Shown piece by piece: positions 17,183 through 26,667 of a DNA stretch of 54,557 bases. The notes under the pieces are model-generated. The model had not been told where the DNA came from. It saw only the letters and a program-made list of their open reading frames with translations, and ran no database searches. The number at the start of each line of letters is the position of its first letter. Positions within the stretch are counted from its first letter, which is position 1. Source of the DNA: Escherichia phage mEp044; the sequence record PP180004; one strand, 5' to 3'. The translations under genes and the position numbers were made by a program.

Positions 17183-17937
17183 GCAAGGCTAAACACTGGT
17201 TAAATAACTGGCTAAGAAGTTGGGTTGTATGGTCGCTGTACGACGGCAGCGGGTACGCCGTTAAAGATTGGGCGGAAGCAGGATATAAATGCTATTGCTT
17301 CAACTATGACGGCGCAAATCACGGCGATTATGAAGGCGTTAAAATAATTCATCCAAATATTGAATATGTCAACGTCTGGATTGATAGCCATTTCCTGGTA
17401 ATGTTCTCCCCTGAATTGTCTGTATATCCAGATCCTGACATTATCTTGGGTTTTCCGCCATGCGACGATCTCGCTGTGTCTGGCGCTCGCTGGTTCGCTG
17501 ACAAGCGAAAAGAAGATCCTGACTTCCAGGTGAAGGCGGCGAATAGCGCCAAACTGGTAGAAAAACTGGCGAATATGCACAACGTGCCGTGGATGGTGGA
17601 AAATCCTGTTGGCGCACTGTCAACTCTATGGCGTAAACCTGATTTTATATTCAACCCGTGCGCTTACGGTGGCTACCTGCCGGAAGATGACAAACATCCT
17701 GCTTTCCCGGATGTTTATCCGCCGCGCGACGCGTACACGAAAAAAACTTGCATATGGTGCGGCAACGGATTCAAACAGCCGCTTTTTAGACCTGTAGATC
17801 TTAACTCTGGTGATAACCCTGGATGGGCGAAAACAGGAGGCAGGACGAAACGAACAAAGATGATTCGCTCACTAACGCCGCGTGGCTTTGCCCGTGCTGT
17901 ATTCCTGGCTAACCATAACAGCGCTTTACCGGACTGA
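17179..17937 (+). CDS. short C5-cytosine methyltransferase-like protein
   Basis: 252 aa; motif I-like LYDGSGY..AGY, motif IV-like GFPPCDD..SG, motif VI-like ENPVG; no obvious target-recognition domain. Confidence 0.55.
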   Translation: MSKAKHWLNNWLRSWVVWSLYDGSGYAVKDWAEAGYKCYCFNYDGANHGDYEGVKIIHPNIEYVNVWIDSHFLVMFSPELSVYPDPDIILGFPPCDDLAVSGARWFADKRKEDPDFQVKAANSAKLVEKLANMHNVPWMVENPVGALSTLWRKPDFIFNPCAYGGYLPEDDKHPAFPDVYPPRDAYTKKTCIWCGNGFKQPLFRPVDLNSGDNPGWAKTGGRTKRTKMIRSLTPRGFARAVFLANHNSALPD

Positions 17938-18096
17938 AATTTACAAAATGGCGTCATTGCGTGATGCTGATCACATAATGGCGCTTTTCACCTTGTTCTG
18001 ACGTATCCATTTTGTATACTTCAAACAAGCAAAATGCTCTTTAAAAATCCGGCAGCGCTGAAATGCGTAGAAATCACCTGAAAAGGAGAGAGCATT

Positions 18097-18273
18097 ATGC
18101 CTTTTGATAATTACCAATGGCATGACGACTATGAACGAGAAAGCGTCATGCGTGCAATGTGCAATGTATGCAGCACGAAGAAAGGAGATTGCAACGAGTG
18201 CAACGAATGTTTAGATCATTGGCTAAGGGCCGGACACGCCGAAAGGCTGAACGAAACAGAGAATCAAAAATAA
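18097..18273 (+). CDS. 58-aa Cys-rich small protein (NinF-like position)
   Basis: manual translation; strong AAAAGGAGAG ribosome-binding site. Confidence 0.45.
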   Translation: MPFDNYQWHDDYERESVMRAMCNVCSTKKGDCNECNECLDHWLRAGHAERLNETENQK

Positions 18274-18287
18274 TCGGGGTGGTTTTT

Positions 18288-18893
18288 ATGCAGAACCCTA
18301 AAAAACCCATACGACGCCGTTGCAAGTGCTGCGGCGTTTTTTTTGAGCCTAAATATCACAATCAAACGTGGTGCAGTGATGAATGTCTGGAAGAACTGAA
18401 GTTTGACCAGCTATGCCGCGACCGTGAAAAGGCTATGAAGGCTATGGAGCGTAAGAAACGACGCGACAGCCAGCGGGAAGAGCGCAACCGGAAGCGGAAG
18501 CAGTTGCACCCGCGAAGCTACTGGATACACCAGGCGCAAACCGTATTTAACGCATACATACGCGAACGAGACGCAGGACAACCGTGTATATCTTGCGGTA
18601 CTTACTATTACGAGCAATGCGGAGCAGACGCGGGCCATTATAGATCTGTGGCGGCGGCTGGGCATCTTCGATTCAACGAAGATAACGTGCATTTACAATG
18701 CAGACATTGCAACCAGATGTTAGACGGCAATATTGAGGCTTATCGACCTGCACTGATTCGAAAAATTGGCCTGGCAAGGGTGGAGGCGCTTGAGAACAAT
18801 AACGAAGTTCACAAATGGACTATCGAAGAATGCAAGGAGATCGCAAAAGTTTATCAGGCTAAGTTAAACGCCTTAAGGAGAAAGGCAGCATGA
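18288..18893 (+). CDS. ninG: NinG/Rap-family protein
   Basis: ORF 18159-18893 with likely start at 18288; Cys/His-rich HNH-like motifs. Confidence 0.7.
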   Translation: MQNPKKPIRRRCKCCGVFFEPKYHNQTWCSDECLEELKFDQLCRDREKAMKAMERKKRRDSQREERNRKRKQLHPRSYWIHQAQTVFNAYIRERDAGQPCISCGTYYYEQCGADAGHYRSVAAAGHLRFNEDNVHLQCRHCNQMLDGNIEAYRPALIRKIGLARVEALENNNEVHKWTIEECKEIAKVYQAKLNALRRKAA

Positions 18894-19318
18894 ACGAATA
18901 TTCTTTTAGCCTGCCTTACCCGCCATCGAATAATCGCTATTACCGACATTCGCGCGGTTTTCACTATATAAGCAAAGTGGGGAAGGAATATCGGGAACAA
19001 GTAAAAGACATCATCGAATTATTAAATTTAAACATCAACCTATCTTGCCGACTGGCAATCGCCATCTATGCCGCGCCGCCGGATAACCGGATCAGAGATC
19101 TGGATAATATCCCTAAATGCCTTTTTGATAGCCTTACTTACGCCGGATTCTGGACCGACGACGGGCAGATCGATTCTATAAAAATTGTCCGCTGCCGGAA
19201 GGTAAAAGGCGGACGCTTGTTTATTAAGATCCGTGAACGCGGCGACCTGCTACCGGATATTGACGAATACGCGACGAATATGTGGGGTGACAATGGAGCT
19301 AATAAACATTGTTGTTAA
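18890..19318 (+). CDS. rusA: RusA Holliday-junction resolvase
   Basis: 142 aa; PPSNNRYY and LDNIPKCLFDSLTYAGFWTDDGQI motifs. Confidence 0.8.
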   Translation: MNEYSFSLPYPPSNNRYYRHSRGFHYISKVGKEYREQVKDIIELLNLNINLSCRLAIAIYAAPPDNRIRDLDNIPKCLFDSLTYAGFWTDDGQIDSIKIVRCRKVKGGRLFIKIRERGDLLPDIDEYATNMWGDNGANKHCC

Positions 19319-19529
19319 ATGTACTCAATCAAGCGTCGATTTTTTCACTGAAGGTAAAAAATATTCAGGTTTTATAAAGCATGGGTGCTTTGCTTTCATT
19401 CTACAAGACGATCTTGTATCTGATTTCGACGACGCCGACGCATGGCGATTAGTCCAGTATTTCCCGTCAAAAAATGAGTATTTTTTGCAGGGTCATTTTA
19501 AAACTCGGTTTAAGGTGGTAGAGAAATGA
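19293..19529 (+). CDS. hypothetical protein
   Basis: ORF 19233-19529 trimmed to ATG 19293. Confidence 0.35.
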   Translation: MELINIVVKCTQSSVDFFTEGKKYSGFIKHGCFAFILQDDLVSDFDDADAWRLVQYFPSKNEYFLQGHFKTRFKVVEK

Positions 19530-19708
19530 AAAACGAAATTAAAGATCTGCAAATAGATATTCAGCGCGATGAGCATGATTTAGAAACTGTACGACAAATA
19601 CAGGCTTTCCACATGCGAGAACTGCTTGCGCTGAAAGAGCTTGAGAGGAAGCTAGTCCAATCAATATCTGATCGTAAACGTCTGGTTGCTCGTTACGGGG
19701 GCAAATAA
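19526..19708 (+). CDS. hypothetical coiled-coil protein
   Basis: 60-aa ORF. Confidence 0.35.
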   Translation: MKNEIKDLQIDIQRDEHDLETVRQIQAFHMRELLALKELERKLVQSISDRKRLVARYGGK

Positions 19709-20430
19709 TGAATCTGGAATCAATTCTTAAATTCCACTTCCCAAAATCACCTCGTTTGTCAGATGAAAGCCGGGGCACGTCCCCTGATGCGCTTAATACT
19801 ACTGATGCACTAACTGCCGCAGGTATGGCGCAATCGCGCGTAGAGCTTGGTTACAGCGCTTTTTTAGGGAAGATGGAACTATCACAAGCAGAAAAACATA
19901 AGGCCGTAGTTTTGCTTATAGAGCGTTTAAGGGCTATGGCAAAAGACTATGAATACGTTATGGAACTGGACGAGGCCAAACGCAATGATCTCATTATTCT
20001 TATTGCCGTTTTCGCGTTTCGGGATTATTGCCAGAGTGCCGCGACGGGAAAAACTTGCCCGGAGTGCGGCGGATATAAATTTACGTTTGACGAATACGGA
20101 GAAAAACACCTTTGCAAAAAATGCAAGGGGCATGGGACAGTTCGCAATCATTGTAAACAATGCAAGGGTCGGGGCGAAGTACCGGATAAAGCAGCCAGTG
20201 AAGCGGCGGAAATGCCAGTGTTCAAAACGTGCCAGCACTGCGGCGGGCGCGGGTATCCGCGTTTCCCTGTAGATCTCGTTCGGCAGGCTGTCAATCAGCT
20301 TGTCTTTCCGGTAAGCCGATCAACGTGGTGGAAGAAATACCGCGCTTTCTATGAAGACGCCATTGCTGAATTGTTCAAAGAAGAGGCGCGTGCTGATAAC
20401 GAAATTAAACGAGTTACGAGGGGTGAATAA
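19708..20430 (+). CDS. Q: lambda-type late antiterminator Q
   Basis: 240 aa; N-terminus (ESILKFHFPKSPRLSDESRGTS...AAGMAQS...ELSQAEKHKAV) and Cys-rich FAFRDYCQSAATGKTCPECGG region resemble lambda Q. Confidence 0.8.
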   Translation: MNLESILKFHFPKSPRLSDESRGTSPDALNTTDALTAAGMAQSRVELGYSAFLGKMELSQAEKHKAVVLLIERLRAMAKDYEYVMELDEAKRNDLIILIAVFAFRDYCQSAATGKTCPECGGYKFTFDEYGEKHLCKKCKGHGTVRNHCKQCKGRGEVPDKAASEAAEMPVFKTCQHCGGRGYPRFPVDLVRQAVNQLVFPVSRSTWWKKYRAFYEDAIAELFKEEARADNEIKRVTRGE

Positions 20431-20699
20431 TGAAGCCTAAATTAAAGGAGCATCTATTTGCAAAGCTGGTTAATGACCTGACATTATCCGCGCGGTTGTG
20501 CCGTGATACACAACAATTAAGGGCGTGGATAGCAAGGGATTTAAGAAAATACATTGAGCCAGGCGGACCAGGCGACAAAATGACTATGGACAAGGCCATC
20601 AAACGCCGTTCGGCTGATTGGTCAGTTAGTAACACAGGATTAACCGGATACATCGAAGGCTATAACGACTGTTTACAGGATCATAGCGATGGCAAATAA
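20430..20699 (+). CDS. hypothetical protein
   Basis: 89-aa ORF, ATGA overlap with Q stop. Confidence 0.4.
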   Translation: MKPKLKEHLFAKLVNDLTLSARLCRDTQQLRAWIARDLRKYIEPGGPGDKMTMDKAIKRRSADWSVSNTGLTGYIEGYNDCLQDHSDGK

Positions 20700-20988
20700 A
20701 CACTTACATTTAAATTTAAAAGGGGAATACTTTCACGCTATCCGGGCGGGAAAGAAGGTGGAGGAATACCGGCTTTATAATGACTACTGGCGGAAACGCC
20801 TGGAAGGGCGGGAATACACAAGATTAATCATCAAATGGGGATACCCGGCTAACAACGAGAAGGAACGAATACTGATTCTTCCTTATATGGGATACACAAT
20901 CAAGACGATTCAGCATCCTTTGTTTGGTGACGATCCTGTTAAGGTTTTTGCTATCCACTGCGATATTTATTGGCAATATAGGTTTTAG
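20689..20988 (+). CDS. ASCH/PUA-like small protein
   Basis: 99 aa; pattern resembles ASCH/DUF3850 proteins. Confidence 0.4.
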   Translation: MANKHLHLNLKGEYFHAIRAGKKVEEYRLYNDYWRKRLEGREYTRLIIKWGYPANNEKERILILPYMGYTIKTIQHPLFGDDPVKVFAIHCDIYWQYRF

Positions 20989-20991
20989 AAT

Positions 20992-21207
20992 ATGAAAAGT
21001 AACCGTAAACGCCTGGTAAGGGCATATGACAAAGCATTAAAGGCTTTTGATGATCTGCGACACAATAAGCGCAAGCGTCGCACATGGGCGCGTGTGCTTG
21101 TTCGTGAATGGCATTATTCTGATGCTTTTATGGAAAGCGCACCGCTATTAACACAAGAACAAGCCGACGAAGTAGCTAACGATAACGTTTATTATATGAT
21201 GTGGTGA
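20992..21207 (+). CDS. hypothetical protein
   Basis: 71-aa ORF. Confidence 0.35.
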   Translation: MKSNRKRLVRAYDKALKAFDDLRHNKRKRRTWARVLVREWHYSDAFMESAPLLTQEQADEVANDNVYYMMW

Positions 21208-21257
21208 TAATATGCAAATAATCATTGATTATCTCTGTCATGCTGTGAATACGCTTT

Positions 21258-21578
21258 TTGGTTTTTTATCAACAACCATTCCTAAGAGAATGGGATGAAA
21301 TGCTTAATGACATCATTGATGAGGGGATAATAGTTGCGGTTGACGAATTAACAATTACGTTCAATTACGAAGGAAAAGAATACGAAATATGGGTAGGGAA
21401 TAGATGGTACTCATACGGGCATATATATTCAATTGGCGGCAAGCACATTAAACGCAGCCAGGAGTTCAGGCCACGATTCCGCACAATGCGCCGCCTGCGT
21501 GATCTGCATATAGGTATATTTGACGAGCAGGAAGAGCGCGAACTATTCAAGATATACGGGGATAAATCATGGAATTAA
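21258..21578 (+). CDS. hypothetical protein
   Basis: 106-aa ORF. Confidence 0.4.
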   Translation: MVFYQQPFLREWDEMLNDIIDEGIIVAVDELTITFNYEGKEYEIWVGNRWYSYGHIYSIGGKHIKRSQEFRPRFRTMRRLRDLHIGIFDEQEERELFKIYGDKSWN

Positions 21579-21799
21579 AAATCTGGCAGGCTATCGACGT
21601 TGTTGATAACGCGTTGTCTATGTTCGCCACTGATGGAAAACGCGTGGCGATTATTACATGGACGCATCACTATGATGATATTGCTTTTCGTCGCAGGACT
21701 GCGGAGTGGTTTTTCTTAGAAGGCGGCTACACGATGAACATCGCACAGCTTGCCAGAATGAAAGATGAAAAGCTGGTTGACAGCTACACAATTGCGTAA
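21569..21799 (+). CDS. hypothetical protein
   Basis: 76-aa ORF. Confidence 0.35.
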   Translation: MELKIWQAIDVVDNALSMFATDGKRVAIITWTHHYDDIAFRRRTAEWFFLEGGYTMNIAQLARMKDEKLVDSYTIA

Positions 21800-21809
21800 C
21801 GGGGTTGAT

Positions 21810-22040
21810 ATGCGTATCTATGAGCACAAGCGGGATAAAACCCGCTTTTTTGTTCGTGCTGGCGTTGCGTACCAGTATCACGAATGCGGTTACATTGAGG
21901 CGCTCGCTTACGATCTGGATTTCGAGCAAGAAAAGGCATGGTTCGATTTTAAAATTTACCGTAAGCGCAAACCTACGCGCGACGAGCGACACGCTATCCG
22001 TGACTTTTTAATCAGTATTGAGCGCTGGGAGACAGATTAA
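21810..22040 (+). CDS. hypothetical protein
   Basis: ORF 21765-22040 trimmed to ATG 21810. Confidence 0.35.
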   Translation: MRIYEHKRDKTRFFVRAGVAYQYHECGYIEALAYDLDFEQEKAWFDFKIYRKRKPTRDERHAIRDFLISIERWETD

Positions 22041-22267
22041 TGAAAGTCAAATTTTTGCACGATCACGGTTATCCGTCACTGAAACAGGTTGTTGGTAAGG
22101 TGGTTAACGTCGTTCATAGTGATAATGTCACTTGCATGATTAACGGTGCTGACCTCATTGCCGCTGGCGCTGATGATCATTACATTAATCCGGCATGGTC
22201 GTATACGTTCAGCCTGAGTGACTTCGTTGGCGATAAGGGGCGCGGGCTTGAAGTAGTCGAGGGTTAA
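22040..22267 (+). CDS. hypothetical protein
   Basis: 75-aa ORF. Confidence 0.35.
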   Translation: MKVKFLHDHGYPSLKQVVGKVVNVVHSDNVTCMINGADLIAAGADDHYINPAWSYTFSLSDFVGDKGRGLEVVEG

Positions 22268-22271
22268 CATC

Positions 22272-22520
22272 ATGGACGTTTACGAAGATCTGTACCTTCA
22301 GACAAATACCAACACTTTTTATTTTCTGAAAAACGGCGTCGTGTATCGCAGTGACGACGGGGTGATAATGAAAGAGTGGTTATTTAAGCGTGAAGACCTA
22401 CTCGACGATCTGGTTTTTGCCGGGGTATTCCGTAAACGTCCGGCTAACCTGGAAGAAGAAATGTTGATAGAGGTATATCAAAATGAAAATCAGGGTAAGT
22501 TATTTCCGGGCGAAAGATAA
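22272..22520 (+). CDS. hypothetical protein
   Basis: 82-aa ORF. Confidence 0.35.
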   Translation: MDVYEDLYLQTNTNTFYFLKNGVVYRSDDGVIMKEWLFKREDLLDDLVFAGVFRKRPANLEEEMLIEVYQNENQGKLFPGER

Positions 22521-22734
22521 GGCAACAGGAAAGCAGATGGCGATCCTGGTTAACGAGGCGCGTTACATGTTTGTGCTTCAACCGTGGTGTATGGCTGACT
22601 ATAACGATGATTATCGCCGTCACGCTGCGCGAAGTGCGGTAGGCATGAAAGGATGGCAACCTCGCGACATGGAAAACTATTGTGAATGGAAATTGGTTGC
22701 AAAGTACACGGTCGATTATAAAGGGGTTTTCTGA
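22483..22734 (+). CDS. hypothetical protein
   Basis: 83-aa ORF. Confidence 0.35.
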   Translation: MKIRVSYFRAKDKATGKQMAILVNEARYMFVLQPWCMADYNDDYRRHAARSAVGMKGWQPRDMENYCEWKLVAKYTVDYKGVF

Positions 22735-22736
22735 TT

Positions 22737-22955
22737 ATGTTTGCAAGATGCGTTTACTCTGACACTGTTCATTTTACTGTTGGCGAGTTATATAGCGTTG
22801 ACCTTCTCAACGGGTCTAATTGGCGACGCGCTGGCGGTATTCATTATGTAAAAGATAATGATGGCGATGCGTGGAAATTTTACGGCGATCATGCAAAAGG
22901 GGTTGTTAAGGGAGGATTTGACAATCGAGTTATGGCGCGTTTCTCTAAGTGGTGA
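22737..22955 (+). CDS. small protein, paralog family A (DxDGxxWxFY motif)
   Basis: 72 aa; shares motif with 22965 and 23207 ORFs. Confidence 0.4.
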   Translation: MFARCVYSDTVHFTVGELYSVDLLNGSNWRRAGGIHYVKDNDGDAWKFYGDHAKGVVKGGFDNRVMARFSKW

Positions 22956-22964
22956 GGTAGTGTT

Positions 22965-23204
22965 ATGAGACAGAATCAGAGATACCAGTGCACATACTCA
23001 CGATGCAGCGCGTTTTTTAAGAATGGCAAGATCTACGAAGTCGGCGCGGCATTGGTTGACGCAAAGAATCAGGAATATATTCACGCCATTACTGACGACC
23101 AGGGTCAGTTATGGCGCTTTTATAAGATGGGGTGCGGCACGGCGCTTGTTTATGCTCGTGCTGGTGGTGGTGCTTTTGCTGCGTTTTCGTATGTAGGGGT
23201 ATGA
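22965..23204 (+). CDS. small protein, paralog family A
   Basis: 79 aa; TDDQGQLWRFY motif. Confidence 0.4.
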   Translation: MRQNQRYQCTYSRCSAFFKNGKIYEVGAALVDAKNQEYIHAITDDQGQLWRFYKMGCGTALVYARAGGGAFAAFSYVGV

Positions 23205-23206
23205 AA

Positions 23207-23425
23207 ATGATTTTAACGTGTAACGAGTCGGAATTAGGCTGTTTTGAGGAAGGCGCACAGTATACGGCTGAAAAACCGATGGGATTGTCGCCTAAGCTGC
23301 CGTTTATCGTCGTGACTGACACTCACGGTCACTTATGGTATGCGGAACCGCGCCGTGGCGTTGGTCGCTACGTTGTCCGTAGTTCGGACGGGATGATGAA
23401 GGTTACTTTTACGGAAGAAACTTAA
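23207..23425 (+). CDS. small protein, paralog family A
   Basis: ORF 23132-23425 trimmed to ATG 23207; TDTHGHLWY motif. Confidence 0.35.
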   Translation: MILTCNESELGCFEEGAQYTAEKPMGLSPKLPFIVVTDTHGHLWYAEPRRGVGRYVVRSSDGMMKVTFTEET

Positions 23426-23426
23426 A

Positions 23427-23442
23427 TGTGATCTGTATCACA
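23427..23442. promoter_or_regulatory. perfect CRP-type palindrome TGTGA-N6-TCACA, adjacent to a TTTACGAAATGG motif
   Basis: tgtgatctgtatcaca read directly, upstream of the 23522 ORF. Confidence 0.35.
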
Positions 23443-23521
23443 ATGTTTACGAAATGGCATTGTTTCGGCAGTGCCGTTTTGTTATATATAAGTCAAAGAA
23501 AGACGGAAGAGGAGGCAAGAA

Positions 23522-23660
23522 AATGAACGCTAACGCTAAATATCCGGCATGGGTTTTTGAACTATACGCACGATACTTTGAATTGCTGGCACCAGGTGAA
23601 GAAGCATTAAGCATTGACGAATACGCGGAGTGTTTGGGGTTCAAAGAAGGCAAGGAATGA
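23522..23660 (+). CDS. hypothetical 45-aa protein
   Basis: ORF 23454-23660 trimmed to ATG 23522 preceded by GGAGGCAAG. Confidence 0.35.
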
Positions 23661-23706
23661 TAAGGTACGGGGTCGGATGGCCCCATCAAATCAGAAGGGT
23701 TGAATT

Positions 23707-24006
23707 ATGAAAAGCAATAAGTTCATTGCTTGCTGTTTTGTTGAAGTGCCTAAAGATGATGTTTTCTGTAATTATGAATTTAAAGATAGTTTAGGCAGAT
23801 CTCATGTTGTTGTTGGTAAGCGCGGAGACTGGTTATATATCACTGATGGTGACAGGATCTTCACCAAAAACCAGTTATTAAGAATAAAGGCAGAAAATAA
23901 TGAAATGCCGGTAGGCAATATGTGGATCATGAACTACCACGCCTGCCTGTGTTTAAAGCATGACGCGGTGAATAAAGCGCGTAGCTTACCTGGTGCTGAA
24001 TTTTAA
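23707..24006 (+). CDS. hypothetical protein
   Basis: 99-aa ORF. Confidence 0.4.
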   Translation: MKSNKFIACCFVEVPKDDVFCNYEFKDSLGRSHVVVGKRGDWLYITDGDRIFTKNQLLRIKAENNEMPVGNMWIMNYHACLCLKHDAVNKARSLPGAEF

Positions 24007-24029
24007 TTTCTTGTTAAGGAGAATAATCA

Positions 24030-24353
24030 ATGTCTAAATTTATCAGCGTTAAGGTTTTCCGTGGCACTTTACCGAACGAAGAAAAACTTGGGCAATTCGC
24101 CGGACAACCTGGCGCATGTTTCCGTGTAGCCACTGACGACGAAGCTAACGTAAAGTGCTTCCATGTATCTGAACCGCCTTTTGACGTGAAACACCTTGAT
24201 GATACAAATCACGTTAAGCATTTTGTTTTTGCATCTGTGGTGCTTAATCCTTGCCCTGATGTTGATGTGGAATTGATTGGAGCTGAACTGGTGGCGGAAT
24301 ACAAAATGACTGAAGGTGTGACAGGGGGAATTGACATTGAGCGCATCAAATAA
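24030..24353 (+). CDS. hypothetical protein
   Basis: 107-aa ORF preceded by AAGGAGAA. Confidence 0.45.
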   Translation: MSKFISVKVFRGTLPNEEKLGQFAGQPGACFRVATDDEANVKCFHVSEPPFDVKHLDDTNHVKHFVFASVVLNPCPDVDVELIGAELVAEYKMTEGVTGGIDIERIK

Positions 24354-24591
24354 GGTATACAAGATCAGGTGTAAAGGCGAATATCCTGGATTTACGATTG
24401 GTTGCGAATACATGGGCCACATTGGGTATGGCCCTTTCGGTGAATTAGGGATGAATACGATGGACGACGACGGCGACAGCAGGACGCTTGATCTTGATTC
24501 TGATGATTTCGAATACATCCCGCCAGTAACTTACCGTGCCGTTGATGATTTCATGGCTGAACATGAAGACGAGGACGATGATTATGATTGA
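24337..24591 (+). CDS. small protein with strongly acidic C-terminus
   Basis: ORF 24331-24591; start uncertain (TTG 24337 or an internal ATG); ends DDFMAEHEDEDDDYD. Confidence 0.35.
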   Translation: MSASNKVYKIRCKGEYPGFTIGCEYMGHIGYGPFGELGMNTMDDDGDSRTLDLDSDDFEYIPPVTYRAVDDFMAEHEDEDDDYD

Positions 24592-24778
24592 ATGTCTTAT
24601 TGCTGTGACTGTTTTGCTTTATATCGCTGGCGCGATCCTGATGTCATGTTTTATTAGATTTAGCGGCGCTAAACCTGGTGGCCTTGAGATTCCTTTCTGG
24701 CCTGTAGTGGTGTTTCTCGCTTTCTTTGATGCTACGGCAGAGCAGATCAGGCGAGCTATTAAGGAGCGCAAGAAATGA
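24578..24778 (+). CDS. small membrane protein
   Basis: ORF 24536-24778 trimmed to ATG 24578; two hydrophobic helices. Confidence 0.35.
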   Translation: MIMIECLIAVTVLLYIAGAILMSCFIRFSGAKPGGLEIPFWPVVVFLAFFDATAEQIRRAIKERKK

Positions 24779-24957
24779 TTGAAGATGGGATCTATGGTGT
24801 AAACCTGATGGAAAACGTTTTTTACATGGTGGAAGGCGATACCGTAACAATCAGCGTAGATGGTGGGGAATATGTAGAGCCATTCTTCAAAACAACAAGG
24901 GAAGACATTAAGCGAAGCGTTGATAACGGTATACTATTTAAGGTTGGCGAGCTATGA
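24775..24957 (+). CDS. small protein, paralog family B
   Basis: 60 aa; GDTVTISVDGGEYVEP...DNGILFK. Confidence 0.35.
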   Translation: MIEDGIYGVNLMENVFYMVEGDTVTISVDGGEYVEPFFKTTREDIKRSVDNGILFKVGEL

Positions 24958-25130
24958 ACGAGATTGAAGACGGTATCTATTTAAGCAAGTTATTTGACAT
25001 CGCCTATTTACTTAAAGGTGATAAGGTGATGATACAAAGTACAGACAATCCATACTGGGAATCAAGCAACGTGGATCGTGAACACCTGCAAACATTATTT
25101 GATAACGGCATGATATACAGAAAGCAGTAA
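24954..25130 (+). CDS. small protein, paralog family B
   Basis: manual translation, 58 aa; GDKVMIQSTDNPYWES...DNGMIYRK, parallel to the preceding ORF. Confidence 0.35.
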   Translation: MNEIEDGIYLSKLFDIAYLLKGDKVMIQSTDNPYWESSNVDREHLQTLFDNGMIYRKQ

Positions 25131-25138
25131 AGCCGTAT

Positions 25139-25167
25139 TTGTGGAGCGAAAACAAACAGATTAAAAT
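25139..25167 (+). promoter_or_regulatory. candidate late promoter (pR-prime-like): TTGTGG, 17 bp, TAAAAT
   Basis: -35/-10 with 17-bp spacer, 30 bp upstream of a terminator and just before the holin gene. Confidence 0.45.
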
Positions 25168-25195
25168 ATTCTCTAACAATGCGAAACTGTAACTA

Positions 25196-25217
25196 CCCGG
25201 CCCTGCGCCGGGTTTTT
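25196..25217 (+). terminator. rho-independent terminator between the late promoter and the holin gene (tR-prime-like, candidate target of Q)
   Basis: hairpin cccggc-cctgc-gccggg followed by TTTTT. Confidence 0.55.
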
Positions 25218-25237
25218 GCTTTGTTGGAGGTAAATCT

Positions 25238-25438
25238 ATGTTCGACAGAATACGGGCGGCGTGCGCTTATGTTACTGGGACCGTAACCGCTTTTTTCGGT
25301 GCTATAACCATTAATGATGTTGCCGTCTTCGTGGGTATCCTATCAACCATTGGCACATTTGCCGTTAATTATTACTTCAAATCACAGGAGAACAAGCGAG
25401 CGCAAGAGGAACACGACGCGCGAATGGGGAATAAGTAA
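25238..25438 (+). CDS. holin, phage-21 S-like (pinholin-type)
   Basis: 66 aa, two TM helices, charged C-terminus, directly upstream of a SAR endolysin. Confidence 0.75.
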
Positions 25439-25439
25439 C

Positions 25440-25931
25440 ATGATTAGCCAATCGCTGAAAAACAAAATTGTTGCGGCGGCGGCTGGTGGGGCGATCGCTA
25501 TTGCGGCGGTGATGATTAAGCCATTAGAGGGCGTGGAATACGATCCTTATCGTGATGTTGTTGGTGTATGGACTGTTTGCTATGGTCACACCGGAAAAGA
25601 CATCATGTTGGGCAAGACTTACACGCAATCAGAATGCGATGCTTTGTTAAATAAAGATCTACACAAGACCGCAAAAGCGATTGACCCATATATCAAAGTC
25701 GAAATATCAGATTTTACCCGCGCAGCACTTTATTCATTCGCCTATAACGTAGGCGCAACCAACTTCAAAACATCAACCTTATTAAAACTACTCAATGACG
25801 GTAAGAAATCAGAAGCGTGCGCACAGCTTAAACGTTGGGTATACGCTGGCGGTAAGAAGTGGCAAGGCCTGGTAAACCGCCGCGAGGTTGAATATGCCGT
25901 TTGCGAATGGGGTGAGACATGGACAAGGTGA
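25440..25931 (+). CDS. SAR endolysin (T4-lysozyme-like muramidase with N-terminal signal-anchor-release helix)
   Basis: ORF 25314-25931 with start at ATG 25440; strong resemblance to phage-21 R ([33 protein letters not shown]). Confidence 0.85.
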
Positions 25932-26389
25932 AGACGTTAATCATCGCCGCTGTTGTTTGCATTGTTGTTGGCCTTGTTGCCGCGCTCAGTCATTGCCAGT
26001 CAGTGATAAACACAATGCAAAGCGAGCTAACGACCACGCAAGGCGCACTGAAAACAGCAAGTAACACTATTCAGCAGATGAAGGAGCGAAACGCCGAACT
26101 GTCAAAACTTGATAAGAGGTATCACGATGAAATTAAAGCTATCAGATCTGACATTGCCGATCTGCGCACTGGCATTGATAGCGGCACTATCAGGCTGCGC
26201 GTCAACGCAATACCAGTGCGAGTGTCCGACCCCGCCGGAACCGCCAGCAGCATTGATGGAGCCTCCTGTAGACTCACTCCCGACGCTGAATCGGCTTATC
26301 TATCCCTCAGAGAACAACTAAAAGAGAAAGACGCGAAGATAACCGCGCTTCAGGGATACATCAAAACGCAGTGCTTACGCAAAGAATAA
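25919..26389 (+). CDS. Rz: i-spanin (Rz)
   Basis: 156 aa; N-terminal TM helix then coiled-coil periplasmic domain; position after endolysin. Confidence 0.75.
26127..26321 (+). CDS. Rz1: o-spanin (Rz1), lipoprotein embedded in Rz in the +1 frame
   Basis: ORF 26109-26321; lipobox LSGC and proline-rich mature part. Confidence 0.7.
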   Translation: MKLKLSDLTLPICALALIAALSGCASTQYQCECPTPPEPPAALMEPPVDSLPTLNRLIYPSENN

Positions 26390-26667
26390 CAGTGCGTTGA
26401 CGTGTCGCCGTTTCTGCCAGCCAGCCATAACCGGGCCAATCCTTCCCGCGAGCGACGGCGGAAATTCAAAAACACGTAATACCGGGTAAACAACCTCATT
26501 AACAGGTCCGGCGCTACCTGGGTAGAAGAAAGCGCCATCCACCAATTTTATAAAATTCTGTAAACGGTACTAACACAGCGCCGTTTTCAGTGTTTTATAG
26601 CTGTTTTCACTCCCTGCGGTGTCGAGTTTTGCGGGGGTTATATTTTTCAGGATAGAGGAATATTCTG

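Follow-up and report, generated by a model that had tools for sequence, protein, structure and literature searches.

A variable array of small genes lies between the Q antiterminator gene and a putative late-control element in Escherichia phage mEp044

In phage lambda, the gene encoding the Q antiterminator and the target of this protein form a textbook single module. As in canonical lambdoid phages in general, the late promoter PR' directly follows Q, and a second -10-like hexamer represents the sigma-dependent pause element at which Q is loaded (PMC9388147). In Shiga toxin (Stx) phages and other lambdoid phages, the region between Q and the holin gene is a variable accessory zone with such cargo as stx, tRNA genes or nanS-p; according to one report, the cargo of Stx phages lies downstream of PR'-tR' and is expressed late, in a Q-dependent manner (PMC7547250). 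The mEpimmI phages, described in 2025 by Negrete-Mendez et al., are presented as Nus-dependent, non-lambdoid phages that encode Gp17, a lambda-like analogue of N, as well as a Q-like protein, and that contain three nut sites; their prevalence in human faecal samples is given as equal to that of lambdoid phages. In this report the term "late promoter" does not occur, and Q, in the passages found, is mentioned in general terms only (PMC11893012). Here we describe the region between the Q gene and the holin gene of Escherichia phage mEp044 (sequence record PP180004). The whole stretch analysed, of 54,557 nucleotides (nt), is referred to below as the window; all coordinates are those of the window, and nutR2, Q, the genes and hairpins of the block, the cassette, and the holin gene lie on its + strand.

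As judged from nucleotide comparisons, mEp044 is an mEp021-like temperate phage of the mEpimmI group. Its Q-to-holin stretch is 84-90% identical to the corresponding stretches of six sequenced phages (mEp010, mEp554, MagusPhagus, mEp013, mEp021, and mEp515), and the overall architecture, Q, the core genes between Q and holin, the putative late-control cassette and the lysis genes are common to the window and to mEp021, mEp010, mEp013, mEp554, and MagusPhagus. Among 5426 complete E. coli genomes, 35 contain related regions, all of which differ from that of mEp044. The best-matching E. coli prophage showed 87% identity at 96% coverage, and the combination of genes present in the window was encountered in no relative that we found. 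Eighteen loci were compared in detail. Counts of the cassette and of terminator-like hairpins refer to 65 loci, namely those 18 and 47 further viral contigs, and distances between Q and the cassette were measured in the 36 genomes in which both elements could be located.

The Q gene of mEp044 (19708-20430) and the sole late-control-like cassette preceding the holin gene (25139-25217) are separated by 4.7 kb, occupied by a block of 19 co-oriented genes encoding proteins of 45-107 aa (20430-25130; designated o01-o09, A1-A3, o13-o17, B1, and B2). An initial annotation of the window had noted about twenty small open reading frames (ORFs) in this position, and this separation is a general property of the group: the distance from Q to the cassette ranges from 1.9 to 7.2 kb, and the two elements are adjacent in none of the 36 genomes. 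We consider it fairly likely that the block forms the distal, accessory and variable part of the early rightward operon, i.e., a delayed-early, Gp17-dependent region which resembles the nin region of lambda but is placed after Q. According to the mechanism that we propose, the N-like Gp17 would act at the nut sites, of which the last, nutR2, is situated at about 18.04 kb, and would make the polymerase that starts at the rightward promoter resistant to termination. Such polymerase would transcribe ninF, ninG, rusA, and Q, and subsequently the 19 coupled genes, reading through the hairpins at 21828 and 23449, and the small proteins of the block would appear together with Q in the delayed-early phase. 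The early operon would end at the terminator t5 within the cassette, which physically belongs to the lysis module. Q, encoded 4.7 kb upstream, would act in trans, on polymerase having started transcription and paused at the cassette, and the Q-loaded polymerase would pass t5 and later terminators to transcribe the lysis and morphogenesis genes. The timing of the expression of the block and its dependence on Gp17 are what we infer from the sequence, and the role of the cassette as a promoter bound by Q is assumed by analogy to lambda.

The cassette consists of TTGTGG (25139-25144), a 17-nt spacer, TAAAAT (25162-25167), ATTCTCT, AACAAT (25175-25180), 14 nt, and an intrinsic terminator (25195-25217). 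The layout of its putative promoter and pause element (25139-25180) is that of lambda PR', in which TTGACT, 17 nt, and TAAATT are followed by TGACTC and AACGAT. The -10-like AACAAT, which begins 7 nt after the -10 hexamer and resembles a sigma-dependent pause element at the sequence level, is invariant in 65 genomes. The spacer contains the invariant AAACAAAC (AAACAAAyrGAT), a candidate Q-binding element, and the sequence from AAACAAA through the ribosome-binding site of the holin gene is almost invariant in the 18 loci, while the proteins encoded by the adjacent B2 gene are only 57-76% identical. The cassette motif is unique in the window. A 28-nt motif which covers both hexamers occurs also in the 47 further viral contigs, all of them representing this type of phage, and starts 78-89 nt (mostly 79 nt) before the holin ATG. 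The terminator, located in the holin leader, is a homologue of mEp021 t5, with a GC-rich 7-bp stem followed by T5 (-20.5 kcal/mol, z -4.2); in all 65 loci the stem is the same, with a loop that varies. In the mEp021 record it is marked as TERM_5 with a score of 100, and it is reported to have been demonstrated experimentally in this phage (PMC11893012).

The region shares with the Q/PR'/tR' system of lambda a homologous Q, a -10 sequence with a -10-like hexamer 6-7 nt further on, and a terminator that precedes the lysis genes. It differs in that its Q gene is remote from the site whereas lambda PR' adjoins Q, in that the -35 sequence is weak or absent, and in that its Q protein contains an extra zinc-ribbon insert. 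The terminator of the window begins some 20 nt downstream of the site at which transcription presumably starts, and the terminated RNA would be of about 45 nt, as compared with 194 nt in lambda, with a leader of about 64 nt to the holin gene. That this RNA of about 45 nt, of near-invariant sequence, might be a prophage small RNA similar to StxS is a possibility that we rate as improbable. In its arrangement of Q and target, the region departs modestly from the lambda-type Q system, as a new variant in a phage group whose genomes are public; otherwise, we regard it as an ordinary zone of variable cargo.

Several observations weigh against the interpretation of the region as an early accessory block followed by a Q-dependent promoter. 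The element at 25139-25217 had been proposed to be the only one resembling a late promoter, and in this respect the proposal holds, as the element is single in the window, conserved, and placed before holin; its -35 part fares worse. TTGTGG fits the consensus at three of six positions, and about one third of the relatives, among them the plaque-forming MagusPhagus, have TCGCGC in its place. The -35 region falls into two sequence classes, GTATTTGTrG... and ATAATCGCGCAT..., and in the second of these, to which MagusPhagus belongs, no -35-like hexamer is present at a spacing of 16-18 nt. No extended -10 was found at the cassette, and a generic consensus scan calls no promoter there. Alleles of Q do not covary with the two classes of cassette upstream sequence or with the candidate Q-binding element, and the link between Q and this site therefore rests on the analogy to lambda. 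As regards the block, the homologue of its gene o08 in mEp021, gp41, carries the annotation "virion structural protein", based on its detection in purified virions by mass spectrometry, an observation more easily reconciled with a late or structural role than with early expression. None of the proteins of the block could be assigned a function, and the structure prediction for family A, one of two families of paralogs in the block, reached a predicted local distance difference test (pLDDT) value of 45.6, too low for a fold search.

Part of this evidence would also be accommodated if the cassette were no promoter but simply the terminator of the early operon, containing -10-like sequences, with the late genes expressed by read-through from upstream, either because Gp17-modified polymerase ignores t5 or because Q loads onto the polymerase of the early operon where sigma-70 re-binds at the -10-like elements. 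The weakness of the -35 sequence, its absence from about a third of relatives including a viable phage, and the silence of the promoter scan speak for this explanation, as do the presence of nutR2 upstream and the inclusion of t5 in the work on antitermination by Gp17 (PMC11893012). Engagement of elongating polymerase by sigma-70 from solution is, moreover, reported to be possible in vivo (PMC4604602). Nevertheless, we find read-through unlikely. The combination of TAAAAT with a -10-like hexamer 7 nt further on reproduces nearly exactly the arrangement of lambda PR' and its pause element, and the invariance, in 65 genomes, of both hexamers and of the spacer upstream of the -10 is more than a bare terminator requires. 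The Q protein is of lambda type, with its torus region and DNA-binding body intact and conserved. In addition, N-type modified polymerase of lambda does not pause at sites of this kind, which counts against read-through as well. An even more unorthodox arrangement, which we rate as quite improbable, is that there is no canonical late promoter and that Q captures polymerase of the early operon paused by sigma-70 re-binding at the -10-like elements. In such a case, "late" transcription would merely prolong the early transcript, with Q as the gate, and the array of 2-7 kb would serve as a delay line between the synthesis of Q and lysis.

The assignment of the 240-aa product of 19708-20430 as a lambda-type Q antiterminator, made initially from the sequence, is well supported by database comparisons. 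The protein matches Pfam family PF03589 with 102.4 bits (cut-off 26.7), and the structure of lambda Q (PDB 7UBM) with an E-value of 7e-39, residues 1-120 and 148-238 corresponding to residues 1-121 and 117-207 of lambda Q. Both the N-terminal segment, which forms the torus at the RNA exit channel, and the C-terminal helix-turn-helix, DNA-binding body are covered by the alignment. The ratio of nonsynonymous to synonymous polymorphism (pN/pS) of Q is 0.11, which indicates purifying selection. Between the two aligned segments, the mEp044 protein contains about 30 extra residues with two more CxxC pairs, inserted in the zinc-ribbon arm (residues ~121-147, encoded at 20068-20150). This zinc-ribbon-like insert is situated in the arm which in lambda Q contacts DNA. 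In relatives, the insert occurs in two very different alleles, in Q forms of 240 aa and 242 aa, and the same downstream cassette accompanies either of them.

As the initial annotation stated, the first gene of the block starts on the stop codon of Q, the first base of the o01 ATG being shared with it. Intergenic space after Q is absent here and in the remaining detailed loci alike, and the gene directly downstream of Q belongs to family 0, 16, or 4 depending on the relative; because the following gene differs between relatives, nothing conserved is located after Q. A late promoter placed immediately after Q would have spoken for a different organization, in which the block is late, Q-dependent cargo comparable to stx and the cassette before holin is secondary to a promoter right behind or inside the 3' end of Q. 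Such an organization would agree with the position of PR' directly after Q in canonical lambdoid phages (PMC9388147), and the detection of the o08 homologue in virions fits it too. However, in addition to the lack of space and the variability just described, our scan detected no promoter-like match on the + strand between 19708 and 21026, no second copy of the cassette motif was found in the window, and inside Q there is one terminator-like match only, a weak one; on these grounds we hold late expression of the block from behind Q to be very improbable.

All 19 genes of the block are real and are under purifying selection, with pN/pS values, computed for each gene against its orthologues, of 0.05-0.40. 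Sixteen of them match PHROG families, the function of which is nearly always given there as unknown, and 15 of the 18 junctions between neighbouring genes are overlaps or gaps of no more than 10 nt. Scanning of the block proteins against Pfam and NCBIfam gave no match above the threshold. Several starts were revised in the course of the analysis, namely those of o06 (to 21810), o13 (to 23523), and o16 (to the TTG at 24337).

Signals found upstream of and within the block are consistent with its transcription as a part of the early operon. A nutR2-like site is present at 18035-18068, upstream of ninF, ninG, rusA, Q, and the block, with a boxA-like TGCTCTTTAAAAA (18035-18047) and a boxB-like hairpin (18055-18068); a t4-like hairpin is situated before it, at about 17950-17985. 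The corresponding mEp021 sequence, flanked by the cytosine methyltransferase gene and ninF, shares 97% identity with 17925-18100 of the window and is reported to contain the predicted t4 and nutR2 of mEp021 (PMC11893012). The block itself contains two hairpins that resemble terminators. The first one (21828-21853), inside o06, has a GC-rich 7-bp stem followed by T6 (z -4.9) and is present almost unchanged in 45 of 65 loci; in mEp010 it carries a compensatory and synonymous double change, from CGG/ACC to CGC/ACG. The second one (23449-23490, fold z -3.9) is located in a 97-nt intergenic gap, the only sizeable one in the block, and retains its stem, with a variable loop, in 43 of 65 loci. It is marked as a terminator in the records of mEp554 and mEp010, on the basis of ARNold prediction by the authors of these records. 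Since the block is downstream of Q, its terminators cannot gate the expression of Q.

Promoter-like sites are depleted, with 9 found and 17.6 expected, and the + strand of the block contains fewer of them than shuffled sequences do. No sigma-70-like promoter was found upstream of the block genes, two weak + strand matches being both intragenic. TTGACA at 21776 was considered as an internal promoter and rejected, as it lacks a -10 partner and is not conserved. The GC skew is positive across the whole block. An Rfam scan of 17800-26500 gave no match, and a tRNA scan found none. Like the nin region of lambda, the block is composed of small, coupled, dispensable, and variable genes, belongs to a rightward early operon beyond a nut site, contains embedded terminator-like hairpins, and has ninF, ninG, and rusA as neighbours; in lambda, the nin terminators tR2-tR4 are read through by N-modified polymerase. 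Unlike the nin region, it is located 3' of Q, is unrelated in gene content, and includes tandem arrays of paralogs. Because this coupled operon lies upstream of the putative late promoter, its genes are expected to be delayed-early rather than expressed in the prophage or dependent on Q. Cargo placed upstream of the cassette would therefore be early and Q-independent, opposite to the cargo of Stx phages, which otherwise occupies a comparable zone between Q and holin.

The initial annotation had compared the block to morons, which are defined by a promoter and a terminator of their own and by deviant base composition, and although high turnover, restriction of small genes to one lineage, and a membrane protein (o17) that could in principle mediate exclusion might favour genes of lysogenic conversion, expressed from their own promoters in the prophage to the benefit of the host, we regard this as hardly credible, as no promoter-like sites upstream and no flanking pairs of promoters and terminators were found, the genes overlap or nearly abut, their G+C content (0.43-0.46) is like that of neighbouring 1-kb segments and of the rest of the phage, and homologues occur in strictly virulent phages.

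The wider notion that the block is accessory cargo of high variability is borne out by the synteny comparison. Across the 18 loci, the length of the Q-to-holin block varies from 2.0 kb in mEp021, where it comprises 8 genes, to 7.3 kb, and its genes represent 24 families, of which only those of o05, o06, o08, and o09 are present everywhere. Of the 19 block genes of the window, 12 are missing from mEp021 and 7 from mEp013; as both phages are viable, most of the block is dispensable. Tandem paralogs, noted already in the initial annotation, do occur in mEp044, and in some relatives there are extra tandem copies of families A and B, of o01, o03, and o15, and of family 15. The block genes are gained, lost, tandemly duplicated, and deleted among relatives. 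Four independent in-frame deletion chimeras, A2::B1, A1::o16, o13::B1, and A2::o15, join unrelated genes of the block, which in the window fall within 22737-25130 (records P0014, i.e., mEp013_60, L005:4028-4324; P0006; P0090; and P0019). The junctions of the chimeras coincide with short common peptide motifs (GGG/GGE, DGD, and EYAE). These chimeras suggest frequent deletion mediated by microhomology, with selection for an open frame through the array.

Of the two families of paralogs postulated from shared motifs, family B, which comprises B1 (24775-24957, 60 aa) and B2 (24954-25130, 58 aa), is confirmed by formal alignment. The Smith-Waterman score of the pair is 74, which none of 2000 shuffles reached (p~6e-8), the hhalign probability is 95%, and both proteins match phrog_15318 (E=4e-21 for B1 and 1e-24 for B2). 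For family A, the proposed trio stands in part. A1 (22737-22955, 72 aa) and A2 (22965-23204, 79 aa) are paralogs by the same test (p~1e-5), both of them match phrog_31142 (E=1e-37 and 1e-5, respectively), and A2 is linked to other subfamilies of family A with hhalign probabilities of 87% and 73%. The similarity of A3 (23207-23425, 72 aa) to A1 and A2 is not significant in pairwise comparisons (p 0.008-0.03), and A3 does not match phrog_31142. Its connection is through a subfamily of related phages, s7, to which it aligns with an hhalign probability of 93% over 42 columns and with 34.7 bits in blastp to one member, the residues in common being C..ES...CFE.G..YT...D.HG..W. A hidden Markov model of pooled family A sequences, built without the subfamily of A3, detected A3 at E 0.03, a marginal value near the scores of decoys. 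Taken together, these alignments make A3 a probable distant member of family A.

Families A and B were also tried as one superfamily and are unrelated by profile comparison (hhalign 4%); their merging in single-linkage clustering is due to the in-frame A2::B1 deletion chimera of mEp013. Inclusion of o16 in family A, considered because of an RC...FT[VI]G..Y motif and of the A1::o16 chimera, is unproven, as hhalign gives at most 55% and to one subfamily only. Arrays of family A, with up to four copies, occupy a single position in the 18 loci compared; the family is missing from mEp021 and from two further loci, L012 and L017. Family B is located at the 3' end of the block, the number of its copies ranging from one to three. 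When 5.8 billion proteins were searched with both families by means of a word index, small proteins only were found; most of the matches are unnamed, and those with a named source come from E. coli or mEp phages, save one metagenomic Caudoviricetes entry. An exhaustive profile search with family A among 1.84 billion representatives gave 22 matches, three of which, large and repetitive surface proteins, look spurious. As far as these searches reach, families A and B are confined to the mEpimmI lineage. The AlphaFold2 model of B2 (pLDDT 91.9) has a beta3-alpha-beta fold of three strands, a helix, and a strand. No match to it was found among the solved structures of PDB; it resembles unnamed ORFan proteins of 50-70 aa from many unrelated phages, with template modelling (TM) scores of 0.65-0.82.

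The remaining genes of the block differ considerably in their distribution. The product of o01 (20430-20699, 89 aa; phrog_29262, E=3e-56; pN/pS 0.13) is variable, and its family, family 0, is duplicated in tandem in 6 of the 18 loci. The product of o02 (20689-20988, 99 aa; phrog_625, E=3e-37), present in 12 of 18 loci, had been called ASCH-like. It scores below the cut-off of PF04266 (16.4 vs. 21.2 bits, with residues 8-32 only), and its best match in PDB, 2Z0T, has an E-value of 0.63, but 329 phage records contain homologues of 50-60% identity, which bear the annotation ASCH (by NCBI) or Eaa2 and are encoded in ea or early regions of P22-like and Stx phages, so that a weakly ASCH-like, Eaa2-like early accessory protein is the description that can be retained. 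A basic protein of 71 aa is encoded by o03 (20992-21207; phrog_8758, E=2e-26; pN/pS 0.36). In relatives, o04 is a gene of 366 nt (21212-21578 in the window; phrog_16975, E=8e-50); here, a run of T6 (21262-21267), as compared to T5 in three aligned relatives, causes a +1 frameshift with the loss of the normal start at 21212, leaving a 106-aa ORF truncated at the N-terminus, from TTG 21258. The additional T may mark a genuine frameshift or a site of slippage, or else result from an error in sequencing.

The core genes o05 (21569-21799, 76 aa; phrog_38280; pN/pS 0.30) and o06 (21810-22040, 76 aa; phrog_30442, E=1e-52), the latter being the most constrained gene of the block (pN/pS 0.05), are followed by o07 (22040-22267, 75 aa; phrog_5009; pN/pS 0.12), homologues of which, at 42% identity, are encoded by virulent rV5-like phages. 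Core gene o08 (22272-22520) encodes a protein of 82 aa which is 98% identical to mEp021_41; the gene is remote from the cluster of structural genes and precedes the late cassette. In every locus there is a 38-nt overlap between o08 and core gene o09 (22483-22734, 83 aa; phrog_38609, E=3e-58). Downstream of the family A array, o13 (23523-23660) encodes an acidic protein of 45 aa that matches phrog_22232, aligned from residue 24 of the longer ORF (pN/pS 0.09), and o14 (23707-24006, 99 aa; pN/pS 0.12), found in 16 of 18 loci, matches neither PHROG nor Pfam. The 107-aa product of o15 (24030-24353) belongs to phrog_23107 (E=2e-58; pN/pS 0.40). The protein encoded at 24337-24591, o16 (84 aa; phrog_25234), with a TTG start as in the relatives annotated with the Prokaryotic Genome Annotation Pipeline (PGAP), is indeed strongly acidic, as initially described: it contains 22 D/E as compared to 6 K/R residues, 19 D/E being within the last 48 residues, and has an isoelectric point (pI) of 4.1 and a net charge of about -16. 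Likewise, the small membrane protein noted at the outset can be identified with the product of o17 (24563-24778, alternative start 24578; phrog_10061), the sole hydrophobic product of the block, with a Kyte-Doolittle maximum over 19 residues of 2.48 and a second hydrophobic segment.

The position of the block in the early operon, the size and turnover of its genes, and the presence of homologues in early regions and in virulent phages suggest that the small proteins may act on the host early in infection, in host takeover or counter-defence. If the accessory genes are early, their likely roles would be narrowed to these, away from lysogenic conversion, and families A and B, the acidic o16, and the membrane protein o17 would be candidates for functional screens. 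In mEpimmI phages, the Q gene and its putative target are uncoupled, the target being fixed to the lysis genes, with up to 7 kb of cargo in between. If our interpretation is correct, this group would be a natural system in which to test how a lambda-type Q acts in trans and with what timing, and how a promoter functions when its -35 sequence is poor or lacking. Known principles are not changed by these results, the value of which is mainly in the annotation of this group of phages.

The cassette is followed by the lysis genes, namely holin (25238-25438; phrog_20, E=5e-19, and annotations in relatives), which would be the first of the late genes, endolysin (25440-25931), and Rz/Rz1. TERM_6, a terminator predicted in mEp021 to separate the Rz gene from the late gene that follows, is conserved at 26590-26625 of the window; since it is conserved in addition to t5, the late transcript would have to pass at least two terminators. 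On the other side of Q, between rusA and the conserved 183-nt gene that precedes Q (19233-19529), there is a stretch of about 200 nt (19301-19500) that has a match in at most 2 of 17 related loci. An ORF of up to 98 aa in this stretch overlaps the end of rusA, and the stretch is possibly an insertion specific to the window.

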